In this document: in pieces, positions 3,121 to 58,531 of the stretch | Numbering within the stretch: the first letter of the stretch is position 1 | Layout of the letters: every line of letters starts with the position of its first letter | Source: Eledone cirrhosa | Lineage: Eukaryota | Length of the DNA: 64,000 bases | Reading direction: 5' to 3' | Assembly: GCA_964016885.1 (NCBI GenBank) | Contig: OZ024743.1 | Location: 105,586,001-105,650,000, forward strand | The notes under the pieces: model-generated | Seen by the model: the letters and a program-made list of their open reading frames with translations, nothing else | Databases searched by the model: none | Told to the model about the DNA's origin: nothing | Position numbers and translations under genes: made by a program

Positions 3121-3191
3121 TATTGTATCTGACGAAAACGCAAATGTCATCGCATGATGATATTTGTTTTTGAAATGCGCATAATAAAATA
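3121..3191 (+). ncRNA. Type I hammerhead ribozyme motif (PLE/retrozyme type)
   Basis: Stem I TATTGTAT/ATAAAATA; CTGACGA 3129-3135; 16-bp stem II AAACGCAAATGTCATC-GCAT-GATGATATTTGTTTTT; GAAA 3172-3175; palindromic TGCGCA; predicted cleavage after AUA at 3183. Confidence 0.8.
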
Positions 3192-3221
3192 CATGGAACT
3201 CTTTTAACCATCTTTTGATCT

Positions 3222-3410
3222 TATATATTATTTATACTCCAGTTCTACAAATTGTAGAGTGCTACTTATCCGATATCTACATTGCTATATATGTAGGAGG
3301 TGAGTTTTATATATGTAGGAGGTGAGTTGTATTGTAGTACAATAAAGCAATGCAGATATCGGATAAGTAGCACTCTACACTTTGTAGGACTGGAGTATAA
3401 ATAATATATA
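3222..3410. repeat. Foldback inverted repeat (~65-bp arms) downstream of the hammerhead; pLTR-like
   Basis: 3222-3286 is the near-perfect reverse complement of 3346-3410. The loop holds a tandem duplicate TATATATGTAGGAGGTGAGTT x2. Ends in (TA)n. Confidence 0.85.
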
Positions 3411-3987
3411 TATAGTTATATATATATATATATATATAGACTGTATATACATACATATTTGTGTATATTTATAAAATGTAATATATATATATATATATAT
3501 ATATATATATATACATCTATGCGTGTGTGTGCGTGTGCGTGTTTGTATTTAAATTTGAGTGGATTGTATGAATAAGCCATTTGCTGCTTATCCGCCAGAT
3601 TAGAAAATGTCATAAGATGCATTCGTATATAACACTATATGTATGAAAAACTTGACTGTAAATAAAAAATTTAGGAGTTGCATCAGAGAATGGCTATTGC
3701 TATGTTTAAATCTATATTTTTAAAGACCCTAACATATAGAAAAATGTGCTTAATGGTGTGTATGTGTTTCCGTGTTGGTGTATTCGTCTGTGTATATGAT
3801 ATTTATCAAATATCCTAGTCTAACTCACAGAAACTGACGTCCTGTTTCTCTGGAAAATTCCAGTTGAACACACGGATTTTATATCACAAAATAAAATGCG
3901 ATAACAGGAGGAAGGCATTGCTGGAAAGATTATATGGACAAAGCAAGGAGGCGAGGCGGAGGAGGAAGTGGAGGAGGAGGGGGGGGG

Positions 3988-4048
3988 GGAAGAAGAAGAA
4001 GAAGAAGAAGAAGAAGAAGAAGAAGAAGAAGAAGAAGAAGAAGAAGAA
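3988..4048. repeat. (GAA)n microsatellite
   Basis: Pure GAA run; explains the polyE/K/S/F ORFs here. Confidence 0.95.
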
Positions 4049-54312: not shown

Positions 54313-54415
54313 ATTCTTTCTACATTTGGCACAAGGCCAGCAGTTACCCAGTACATTACTGATACTTTATTTTATCGACCCCGTAGGGATGAAAGGTAAC
54401 ATTAACCTCGGCGGG
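54313..54415 (-). mobile_element. SINE family 1, truncated
   Basis: Reverse complement of the family 1 3' half. Confidence 0.8.
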
Positions 54416-55163
54416 ATACACCTATTTATGTCCACGCAGTCCAACAAAAGTTGGGTGCGTTTTAATACGAATGAAGTAAAAAAAAAAAAATAATAAAAAA
54501 CCTGTGTGTCAAAATCCAGAAGAGTAAAGAACTACAATTCTTATTTCCGCATGAAGTACATATTCGTATATGTTCGCCAACGCACACCGTTGCGCGTACA
54601 CACGTTTAAACACAGGGCCGGGTGCATTAACATATTACGTCCACACAATCACACATGCATACATACACGCATACACACAATTCCATATACGCCCACATGT
54701 GGATACACACACAGAGACACAGGGTCAAAAGTCACCTGTAGAGGGGGAGTGGTGTAAGTAGAAGTAATAGGCGCGTCCTATTTACTTGCGGTATTTAGCA
54801 ATGACATGCGTGCGAAGGGGGTCGGGTTCGAGGCAGGATCACAAGCCGGGATTGGGTGTTGATGCCCACTGGTCGGAAACGTGGGTTGCCTGTTTTCACA
54901 CAGGATAGGACTCCACCGACGTAATTTGTCTCGTTATATCATCTAGTCTCAGCTAGCCTGAGTTCTGGTTAAGGAAGTGAGAGAGAGGTGTTGACCTCAG
55001 CGGTGGGATGCATGGTTTTAGCTGCTAGGTTATAGGTGCTAATCGAGGCGAGAATGGTGGGGGGATAGTGGCAGGTGTAGGGTTTGGTTTGGTGTACCTT
55101 CGGCTCGGTGTGACGGTGTTGCTATCCCTATAGCTTGAGGAAAGTTCCCCTCGAAAGGGGTTG

Positions 55164-57642
55164 CTATCCATATAGCTTGAGGAAGGCTCCGGCCCTGAGG
55201 TATCTACAGGTACCAAAGAAGTCGGTCCTGAGGTAGATTAGGCTACTCCCAGCACTGAGTATCTCGAGCGTCTCGCTCAAACAGAGGTTGCAGATGCGAG
55301 ATCCCTCTCTGTCAGGTGGCACTTTCCTGATTTTCGACCAGGTCAAAGAGTACGGGGTTCTGTCCAGCTTGAGCTTGCAGATCAGTTCAGAAAGAGCCGT
55401 ACTTTTTCCTTTAGTCCTCCCTATTAAAGGAATTGCAATGGTTATACCATCTGTCTTTGAATCTTGTTGATGTGGCTCCTATGAAAAAGGGGTCAGAGTT
55501 GGTGGCTTTTACAATACATCCGTATACTAAGTTCTTCATTAGGAATTCATTATTAAGGGGGCACAATGTGGGGGTTCTGCAGTTGCAGGAGGTGGTCGAC
55601 CCCTGAAAGCCTATTGTGAGGTTCCCGTTGCGTAGTATGGGATGGTCGATCCCTGGGTCAGGTGGAGGGCCTTGGGTCGGTTTGGGTTCCCAGGGTCGGT
55701 TCCAGGTCCATTCCCCCCACCACATGGCTCTACTGGGTGTCTATAGTGGCAGCTGCTGGCTGCGTGTAGTTCCCTAAGATTACTCCTATTGTTACTAGCT
55801 ATGTGATGGGCTACGTTGAGCGTGGTAGAATAGGAAAGCTTCACCGTGTGTTTGTTGAAGATATTGCGGTATCTGTGGTTCCTCGGGAAGCATTTATCTA
55901 GTGCCCTAAAGAATTACCGGGCCAGGCTGGTCTTCAGCCCCGCTGAGTAGGGTGGGTTGTACCACGTAATTTTTCTTATTCTATTCCTATGTGGGTGGGT
56001 TGAGCGTGCTGTAGACCGATGGGGAGTTTTTGGGTGCTAGTGTTTCCAGCATTGTTGCTGCCCCTTTGGGCGTTATGGGTTTTGTTAGCTACTCGGCCCG
56101 TACCTGTGGGGTGGTGTGTGCCAACGCCTTGAGTTCTACACTGGGATGATCCTCCATCCATCCCGATACGTGTCATGCGGTTAGGGGCGGTGGAACCGGG
56201 ATGGTTAGTATCAACCCTGAAACCGCCTTGCATACTGTGTTCCTCCCATGGCTAGGCGTATGCGTCCTTTTCGCTAATGTGGTGGTGCCGCGTTCAGGGG
56301 GTTTAGTGGCTTCCACTCGGCTTGCACTGTTAGGGTTCCCCGCTCCCGGATACCAGGGATAGGGAGGCATGATGGGCCATTTATATCATGGGTTGTAATA
56401 TATAGTTTGGCCATGGGCCGCTTTATTCAGAGCTGCATTCTAATATTCTGCGTTGCTACCGAAGATCTCCTTATTAGCGGACAGGTTGGAGATCCTGTCC
56501 GAGACATTAATGACTACGGCCTTAATTATGTATCTAGGGTGGTTTGACTTAGCGTTAACATATACCAGTTTCTGGTTGGGCTTGTGATAGGGGTAGTATT
56601 GCTCAGTGTTCAAGTTTAGGGAGGTGTCTCGGAAGTTGACTACCTTTCTATTGGGGTTTAATTCTATACTAAGCCCATGATTCCTAAAGAAATGCCCAAT
56701 TCGCCTTTTCATTCCCTCCACCATAGTGGTGCTGTGGTCATAGACGGTGAATAGGGCATCGTCACGGTATAGTCCGCCGCCGAGGCAGGGTATTTCCTCT
56801 TTTATCTGCTTCAGCAGGAAGATCCCAACCAGGTCTGTTACCTGCGGAGTGTCGCTGGAGCCCATCGTTATGTCAAAGTTATTTGGCCAATCACTCCTGG
56901 TCCAAAGGTCACCACCGAAACGGATGAAGGTCTTTCGGGCGGCGTGGATGATGCCTACCTGCTCGCGGGTCAAGTCTGTATTGGACATTGCTATGCTTTT
57001 TATGACTATCCCTAGGTCCGACCCGGAGGGGGCTATTAGTCTAACCGGGAGGTCGGACTCAAAGTTGGACTTGTGATTTTTACGCGTAATCCTTGGCTCC
57101 GTTGGTTGGTATGGGGCTGTCCAATCATCTATGCCGAGTCCGGATACTATCCCGTAAGCACTGGCGTTGATCTCCTCCAGGGTAACTCCAGGTATTATTT
57201 TGTAGCACTTCCTCTGTTTCCTGAGAATTATATTATTATACAGTTTGACGCTCATGCTGTAGAGGTTGTTGGTTTTATCAGCATGGACGAGTATTCCGGT
57301 CGTCTCCTTAAGCTTGGCAGTCCCGTTTCCCAGGTGTCTGGGGTACTTCCGAATCCTAGCTGTGTAGCCGGAGAATTTGAGGATGGAGATAATGTTAATC
57401 ATCTCTTTCTCGAACTCCTCCTGTAGCCTGTTGTGGGGGGGGGGAGGAATCCCCCTTGATCTAAAAAGTTACTCCATGTTTTGGGTGTTGGTAATTTTGG
57501 GCGTTCCTCTTTCATCCTGGAACGCCCTCCATCGCATCCTACGGACGAGGGAGTCAGTAATGTTGATGAGATCACTTGTGTACGCTCGTTTGTCTGGTAG
57601 GGGGATATCCTCTAGTGACGCCAAGGTTGCAAGTTTTTCCAT
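55164..57642 (-). pseudogene. PLE ORF: reverse transcriptase + C-terminal GIY-YIG endonuclease (Hydra-clade-like)
   Basis: SLEDIPLP..RRMRWRAF, ADKTNNLY, FDITMGSSD, GLYRDD, YHKPN..YVN..SNHP, WYNPPYS, CNC..CPL..LVY..FIG.T..FK.RW.NH, CNLCLSE. Stops, frameshifts and an internal RT deletion are present. Confidence 0.88.
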
Positions 57643-58464
57643 TGCGACTTAAGACCGCTACTGTTTAAAGCGTTCAACACGTGGTGGAGCAAGATAAATT
57701 TTGAGTATGTGCTGGTTGTTTCGCGAACCTCAGTATGCAGGCTGGAGCACTCGACGAAGTACGCAGGTTGGTACGGCCTGATGAGGTCACAGTTCTTTAC
57801 ACTTATGGATTTTGACACCCAGGTTTTATATTTTTTTATATTTGTTAGACTGTGTAGACATAAATAGGTAAATGCACCCGAGCCTGCCTTTATACCTGTG
57901 TACGCGCAACGCTGTGCGTTCGCGGACAAATACACGTATGTACTTTATGATGAAATAAGAATTGTAATTCTTTACACTTCTGGATTCTAACACACAGGTT
58001 TTCATTTTATTTATTTATTTTTTAAAAAAATGTATTAGTTGTAACACACGCATTTTTTGTTTGGCATCCCCCACTACGGGAAATGGTGGCAAGTGAGATA
58101 CCAGTCTACACGCATAAATTCTTCCGATCATAGCAGCAGCAGCAGCCTACCAAGGTTGACCTGCTGGCTGACCTCCTAACACCACTACCACTACCACCAC
58201 GGTAAAATAGGTCAGTTGGACTTAAACATTCTGATAAATCAACCATAACAGGTTGACCTATTTCTGAAGAATTTCTATAGACTTTTGACTGGGATGATAT
58301 GATAACTGACCAATGGGGTGGAAGCGTGTCCTCTGACGCTGAAATTCGTTCATTCTAGCACTTTGTACCTCGGAGGACTACCAACACACCCAGGAGCTGG
58401 ACATATCGATGAATTGACAGAGTGGAACACATTTCAACACCATCTTTACCTATTTTTCTACATT

Positions 58465-58531
58465 AATTCATACTGCCTGATGAGGTCGCAGTCAATAATA
58501 GCTGTCACTGAAATATATATAGCAAAGAATT
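58465..58531 (+). ncRNA. Type I hammerhead ribozyme motif in the inverted PLE leader copy
   Basis: AATTC..TGC-CTGATGA-GGTCGCAGT(loop)GCTGTCACT-GAAA-TATATA-TA-GCA..GAATT. Confidence 0.8.

Follow-up and report, generated by a model that had tools for sequence, protein, structure and literature searches.

The 64,000-nucleotide (nt) window analysed here, from the cephalopod Eledone cirrhosa (assembly GCA_964016885.1, contig OZ024743.1, positions 105,586,001 to 105,650,000 of the forward strand), contains four type I hammerhead ribozyme motifs, H1 to H4, that share a C opposite a pyrimidine (C·Y) at the fourth position of stem II, together with a decayed Penelope-like element (PLE), one end of which carries H4. 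An earlier sequence-only reading of this DNA had reported four such motifs, and all were found as it described, its positions marking the outer end of stem I. It had missed two further cores, the intact H5 (24622, minus strand) and the decayed H6 (54217, minus strand). Coordinates are collected in the table; numbering follows the standard hammerhead scheme, with stem II position 4 being 10.4/11.4.

The core (C3 U4 G5 A6 N7 G8 A9, G12 A13 A14, the A15.1-U16.1 pair and H17) is intact in H1 to H5, and H6 departs from it where A14 has become U, turning GAAA into GAUA. Three helices surround the core, with helix I open-ended. Helix II in the C·Y copies consists of three pairs, the C·Y mismatch and at least five more pairs, and its terminal loops are unrelated. 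This bears out the claim of three varying pairs followed by a C·Y and a continued helix: the first three pairs read A-U/A-U/A-U in H1, G-C/G-U/A-U in H2, A-U/A-U/G-C in H3 and G-U/G-C/U-A in H4; position 4 is C·U in H1 and C·C in H2, H3 and H4; and position 5 is G-C in H2 and G-U in the other three. All four copies then read GAAA, a self-complementary hexamer and UA, again as had been claimed. Stem I is paired at eight of eight positions in H3, seven of eight in H1 and six of eight in H2, with only three contiguous pairs in H4, so that it is weak in H2 and H4. H1 to H3 have an A/U-rich stem I in common; H4 has a different, G/C-richer helix, which is decayed compared with that of its relatives.

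Table. Hammerheads, downstream motifs and Penelope-like element (PLE) sequences in the window, with positions counted from its first letter (RT, reverse transcriptase).
Feature	Extent (strand)	Core	Stem II	Position 4	Predicted cut after	Remarks
H1, type I hammerhead	3121..3191 (+)	3129-3135	3136-3171	C3139·U3168	3183	GAAA 3172-3175, hexamer 3176-3181
H2, type I hammerhead	6017..6082 (-)	6074-6068	6067-6037	C6064·C6040	6025	
H3, type I hammerhead	18462..18526 (+)	18470-18476	18477-18506	C18480·C18503	18518	
H4, type I hammerhead	58465..58531 (+)	58477-58483	58484-58509	C58487·C58506	58521	
H5, intact type I hammerhead	24542..24627 (-)	from 24622	55 nt, long	paired		8-nt palindrome, GUA site
H6, decayed hammerhead	54163..54227 (-)	from 54217		C54207·C54188		PLE 3' end, sense strand
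Downstream motif at H1, ACTCCRG...GAGTGCT	3236..3263 (+)					53 nt past the H1 cut; first arm of inverted duplication 3222-3410
Downstream motif at H2	5937..5964 (-)					61 nt past the H2 cut
Downstream motif at H4	58581..58623 (+)					60 nt past the H4 cut, inside a very high-copy segment
Decayed PLE open reading frame	55164..57642 (-)					RT, CxCX5C linker, C-terminal GIY-YIG; several stops and frameshifts
Inverted 5'-truncated copy of PLE 3' region	57791..58710 (+)					head to head at PLE 5' end; carries H4

Because a general descriptor (core, three base pairs of stem II, GAAA, a 6-nt stem III with two outer pairs and UH, with position 4 left free) finds four sites in the window against a mean of 0.055 and a maximum of 1 in 200 order-4 Markov sequences, the combination of core and three stems stands far above chance. 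All four of these sites carry C·Y, and a strict C·Y descriptor found none in the random sequences. Across H1 to H4, all 24 cells at stem II positions 1-3 and 5-7 are paired, whereas none of the four cells at position 4 is. In a five-copy alignment that adds H6, 81% of cells are paired, compared with a shuffled mean of 67.7% and no shuffle of 500 as high, in a test that ignores relatedness and takes its structure from the same copies. Two-sided changes are seen in eleven pairs, a count that 1 of 500 shuffles reached (although related sequences can beat this control), and six of the nine stem II pairs are among them, while 10.4/11.4 is unpaired in all five. A covariance model built from the five copies (R1) retrieved no further copy in the window, only its training copies and microsatellites.

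The sequence-only reading had held that the mismatch is kept while its neighbours covary, and this stands: C·Y is fixed, and neighbouring pairs change on both sides among four families. A C-G pair at position 4 is predicted to gain 5.5-6.0 kcal/mol in each of H1 to H4, and none of them has one. Because four families have changed the neighbouring pairs without repairing the mismatch to the more stable C-G, we consider it likely, with good though not full confidence, that selection acting on the RNA maintains the C·Y 1x1 loop at 10.4/11.4. Over the 100 nt upstream, H1 to H4 resemble one another no more than shuffled sequences do, the only similar pair being H4 and H6.

Relatives of H4 within the species give a view of one of these families. 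We compared region 58300-58660 at 80% likeness with three contig sets from one sample (X1-X3) and with a restriction-site-associated DNA sequencing (RAD-seq) read set from another study (X5), which yielded 1652-1720 matching contigs and 6131 matching reads. Stem II position 5 (58488) is A in 3850 of 3895 X5 reads, many of which end at one site and are hence non-independent, as well as in 70-82 contigs per set and in more than 99% of contig depth in X1-X3. The G at this position, which had been claimed as conserved, is therefore a feature of H1 to H4 only; about 99% of H4 relatives have A, the rule at position 5 is purine-pyrimidine rather than G, and the G at 58488 is peculiar to the copy in the window. 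At stem II positions 5, 9 and 10, the letters most common in the relatives restore Watson-Crick pairs; the U-G and C·A of the window become C-G pairs with the majority letters at 58492 and 58500, and C makes up 43-61% at 58509. Neither mismatch C, and no core position save N7, is among the 40 best-supported differences. The C·C is the family state of H4, which is no separate proof of selection. Over 58573-58660, contig depth is several times that over the H4 hammerhead, marking the terminal segment as a very high-copy repeat.

The element beside H4 can be followed in some detail. Matches of tblastn and profile searches to PLE proteins are ordered along the minus strand, with relatives that share 45-52% identity across roughly half of the RT piece, among them two proteins named from Octopus sinensis (47%); Pfam gave no recognition of the decayed pieces at 55164-57642. 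The translated pieces contain RMRWRAF (R for K, as in relatives P0001 and P0002), ADKTN, CNCRTPTLC and, as CxxC, CNLC; the GIY-YIG core has a single C inside it and there is no CCHH. The marks listed for the Hydra clade in the available portions of PMC8557442 (to such portions all our statements on published work refer) are RWK, DKG changed to DKT, a CxCX5C linker, no CCHH, and CxxC plus CxH around E and N. By these motif tests the element at 55164-57642 is assigned as a putative Hydra-clade PLE. We rejected a Naiad identity, as the endonuclease is C-terminal. A second GIY-YIG fragment, at 32665-32878 (+), matches the PLE profile with E 2e-4, and no hammerhead was found behind it.

The segment that carries H4 is 74-78% like 54173-54655 and 57661-57772 of the same element. 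Inverted 5'-truncated copies at PLE 5' ends are frequent and are listed for Penelope-13_HM (PMC8557442). H4 thus lies in the inverted 3' end and H6 in the sense 3' end of a single decayed PLE, both ends terminating in (TA)n, which follows H6 directly. The claim of the sequence-only reading that the motifs are PLE-type, type I hammerheads whose stem III is palindromic is supported.

For H1 to H3, we infer a link to PLEs from the downstream motif shared by H1 and H2 and from the proximity of (TA)n. H1 to H5 all lie 50-326 nt before a (TA)6+ repeat, the repeat beginning 50 nt past the cut in H3 and 74 nt past it in H5. With 17.7% of random sites within 326 nt of such a repeat, the chance for five is about 2e-4; H6 was left out of this count, its own hexamer overlapping the repeat. 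H1 to H3 also adjoin long inverted repeats (3222-3410, 5703-5839 and 18271-18371, respectively), and that at H1 ends in (TA)n. The downstream motif occurs elsewhere in the window only in the inverted arm at H1 (null mean 0.01), and is possibly a second structured signal at PLE ends. By eye, its ends can pair (ACTC with GAGT, followed by a 2-nt bulge). H1 to H3 very probably represent solo 3' ends of related families that are 5'-truncated and were inserted at (TA)n. With the downstream motif shared by H1, H2 and H4, (TA)n nearby in all four copies and dissimilar 100-nt upstream flanks, H1 to H4 appear from their sequences to be four diverged families of one lineage.

We propose, with a probability of about 0.5, that H1 to H4 are type I hammerheads from the 3' ends, or pseudo-long terminal repeats (pseudo-LTRs), of Hydra-clade PLEs in which C·Y has been selected as a docking or hinge site. 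PLE hammerheads cut the element transcript after NUH, and in the C·Y copies the predicted cut would fall after AUA. The monomer stem III has two A-U pairs (A-U, U-A) closing a tetraloop; the 15.1-16.1 segment has no fold alone and pairs with a second copy at -10.5 (H1), -3.2 (H2 and H4) and -2.2 (H3) kcal/mol. Because the monomer helix is limited to those two A-U pairs and a tetraloop, efficient cutting would probably require two copies whose self-complementary 8-mers are paired with each other. A dimer model of PLE hammerheads has been described (PMC4209133), and the pairing of the H1 to H4 segments fits it.

Stem II is 8-16 pairs long in the C·Y copies, and the terminal loop is therefore too distant for the contact with stem I that canonical type I hammerheads make. 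We envision that the C·Y loop could instead offer an opening or hinge at which stem I docks on stem II, replacing the loop-loop contact. Docking is favoured because C·Y sits about where a canonical four-pair helix II ends, and because C10.4 is the commonest letter in Hydra motifs. PLE hammerheads have been said to be without recognisable tertiary contacts, and their role has been left open (PMC4209133). Our more tentative proposal, which we regard as somewhat unlikely, is that H1 to H4 form an undescribed long-stem-II type I subtype in a very high-copy cephalopod sub-lineage of Hydra elements, with C·Y as a tertiary docking site. If true, this subtype would be missed by Rfam and by a mismatch-free descriptor, and it would add a new means by which natural hammerheads stabilise their active fold.

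Several observations weigh against the docking proposal or the links on which it builds. When flanks were inspected by eye for a conserved stem I partner of C10.4 (a Watson-Crick pseudoknot), there was no conserved G. In vitro, cutting by published PLE hammerheads is poor, also in dimeric form (PMC4209133), and monomers suffice for cutting in many invertebrate motifs whose stems have two pairs, which speaks against dimers being strictly required. The long stem II of H5 lacks C·Y, which places H5 outside the variant; four families in one species, sharing ancestry, represent it, and H6 is not independent of H4. Among the H4 relatives, 83 weaker differences lie beyond the best 40, so that minority changes at either C are possible, and the X5 reads count for less than their number. 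As to the PLE assignment, the CxH of the decayed copy reads CRY and its conserved N is missing. No PLE open reading frame was found beside H1 to H3 or H5, an absence that 5' truncation would explain at H1 to H3, and the downstream motif was defined after seeing the H1, H2 and H4 sites. Finally, no complete C·Y hammerhead turned up among the stretches listed from viral contigs or metagenomes.

The main rival to docking is that the mismatch acts as a brake, weakening the core-proximal pairs so that stem II slips and ties up G8, A9 and G12, with cutting that is late or confined to dimers. Predicted folds point both ways: the slipped register is more stable than the active one by 1.3 (H1) and 2.8 (H2) kcal/mol, and placing a G at 11.4 in silico turns the active register into the best fold in both, whereas H3 and H4 are predicted to fold in the active register as they are. 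In published Hydra motifs, stem II is often weakened differently, by a pyrimidine mismatch at 10.1/11.1 (PMC8557442), but a brake needs neither a C specifically at 10.4 nor one constant position, and we think this explanation unlikely. With a single conserved mismatch, changing one letter would cleanly show whether a hidden contact or a built-in brake exists in a PLE hammerhead.

A second rival is unselected inheritance: one ancestor lost G11.4, the ribozyme tolerates the loss and four families have carried it unchanged. The copies are indeed related, with a stem I common to H1 to H3 and a shared downstream motif; they number four, and 11.4 itself varies, being U in H1. Other 1x1 mismatches occur sporadically at position 4, in 2 of the 56 rows of PMC4209133; published examples are the U·U of Clonorchis family 2 and, in S. 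purpuratus family 1, a C·A with G-C as the next pair. What makes inheritance improbable is that positions 1-3, 5 and 6 differ among families yet stay paired, that C10.4 is constant with no family repaired, and that the flanks have diverged past recognition. If the mismatch were neutral, these ribozymes would be an ordinary new member of a published family. A mark for the element's RT or a host RNA-binding protein, serving packaging or priming with no role in catalytic folding, goes back to the protein-binding site suggested by the sequence-only reading and would suit the fixed distance of C·Y from the cut site and from the second conserved 3' motif, as well as the suggestion of Cervera and de la Pena that host factors act on PLE hammerheads in vivo (PMC4209133), but most Hydra elements are without the loop (present in 0 of 25) yet encode similar proteins (PMC8557442), and we consider it very improbable.

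Searches outside the species covered viral contigs, metagenomes and genome contigs. In viral contigs, the C·Y pattern matched 13 loci (3 distinct), none with a stem II, and the G-C pattern matched 55, one of which has three pairs in both stems, without C·Y. A free pattern, for which 120 of about 970 viral loci were listed, left 3 of 106 distinct sequences after the stem II filter, none of them C·Y. In metagenomes, where 115 of about 210 stretches were listed (110 distinct), five passed the same filter. Three metagenome loci (L263, L285 and L302) show C·U after three pairs and have no stem I. Model R1, run on 100 of the 115 metagenome loci, gave at most 27 bits, with two of the C·U loci at about 21 bits and L302 unscored; because stem I is absent and the scores are low, we treat these C·U matches as chance. 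The blank outside the species says little, as the collections are mostly microbial.

A scan for PLE proteins found nothing in viral contigs and two loci in genome contigs, L304 (2-2242) and L305 (3501-4960), both inside prokaryote assemblies, where this Hydra-type PLE sequence probably stems from host contamination. At 4909, L305 carries an ordinary Hydra-type hammerhead, without C·Y, and no hammerhead was found in L304.

The window also holds other mobile sequences. Two decayed copies of an element resembling a long interspersed nuclear element (LINE), at 12692-16058 (+) and 37825-42739 (-), are 91-94% alike, lie in opposite orientation and match RVT_1. Decayed open reading frame pieces at 49002-51612 (+) match PIF1 helicase, and we take them to be Helitron-like. 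No Pfam match was obtained for the pieces of similar appearance at 744-2055 and 6970-7419.

Compared with the Rfam hammerhead families, to which the sequence-only reading had pointed, the window gave 0 matches at gathering score. With E allowed up to 10, the H3 and H4 regions gave no hammerhead family; at E up to 5, the 150 of 325 matches listed were microsatellite-driven microRNA models and one weak viral untranslated region (UTR) model. The printed descriptor of PMC4209133 allows no mispairs and specifies a loop 2 of 3-10 nt and a minimal stem III, and for these reasons could not retrieve H1 to H4. Rfam and this descriptor therefore both miss a type with four intact copies in 64 kb. By eye, C·Y at position 4 is found in 0 of 56 rows of the PMC4209133 supplement and, at 10.4/11.4, in 0 of 25 Hydra families of PMC8557442, the first set being biased by the no-mispair descriptor and the second likewise against mismatches. 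The supplements of PMC3088659, searched for five motifs, gave no match.

In the literature, C·Y was not found in the available text, figures aside, of PMC4209133, PMC8557442, PMC7229834, PMC6765202, PMC3088659, PMC7761336 or bioRxiv 10.64898/2026.07.22.740005; this does not reach Lunse et al., Arkhipova et al. 2017 or the 16 coral and 2 mussel families in the PMC7229834 supplement, where the mismatch may appear. A literature search on self-cleaving hammerhead ribozymes in cephalopod genomes gave no papers. The sequence-only reading had named the hexamer, the AUA site and C·Y as defining marks. Of these, C·Y alone was not found in the sources covered; the hexamer and AUA are already published: the D. 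willistoni row in Fig. S3 of PMC4209133 shows an AUA site and a palindrome of 6 nt with U and A on either side. With these marks published, the position-5 G variable and the variant confined to four families of one species, to call it a distinct class was an overstatement.

Among known systems, canonical metazoan type I hammerheads, such as those of non-LTR retrozymes (PMC7229834; Rfam Hammerhead_1), have the same core and a stem III of two pairs and a tetraloop, which is the invertebrate norm (PMC7229834). They differ in their four-pair helix II with loop-loop contacts and in their tandem repeats of ~220-390 bp, whereas H1 to H4 are solo, and we set this identity aside for their long helix II with its internal C·Y and unrelated loops. 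A retrozyme origin was likewise rejected, a self-search of 600-1200 nt around H1, H2, H3 and H5 having found no tandem copy. H5 itself has an 8-nt GC palindrome with a self-duplex of -19.9 kcal/mol. Nor do these motifs correspond to the minimal PLE hammerhead (min-HHR), which lacks a helix III outside the core and carries an additional nucleotide between 9 and 10.1, as they have a 6-nt stem III insert and a stem II that begins directly after A9.

Closer are the PLE hammerheads with a small palindromic helix III from D. willistoni, Aedes and Adineta (PMC4209133), which likewise combine a long helix II and a palindromic helix III with proposed cleavage as dimers; the consensus in that source differs in its extra nucleotide after A9 and its G10.1-C11.1 pair. 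With the 25 Hydra-clade families, Hydra-1_Obim among them, in File S2 of Craig et al. 2021 (PMC8557442), our sequences share a type I core near the 3' end, a C-terminal endonuclease (EN+), RWK-like, DKT and CxCX5C motifs, (TA)n targets and, in 15 of 25 families by eye, a C at 10.4, there paired with G11.4. The published Hydra hammerheads differ in having a GUH cut, longer stem III inserts, a mostly short stem II and often a pyrimidine mismatch at 10.1/11.1, and the Hydra-1_Obim hammerhead also differs from the C·Y variant (PMC8557442). Set against these relatives, what may be new in H1 to H4 is the C·Y internal loop only, the palindromic hexamer and AUA being already known.

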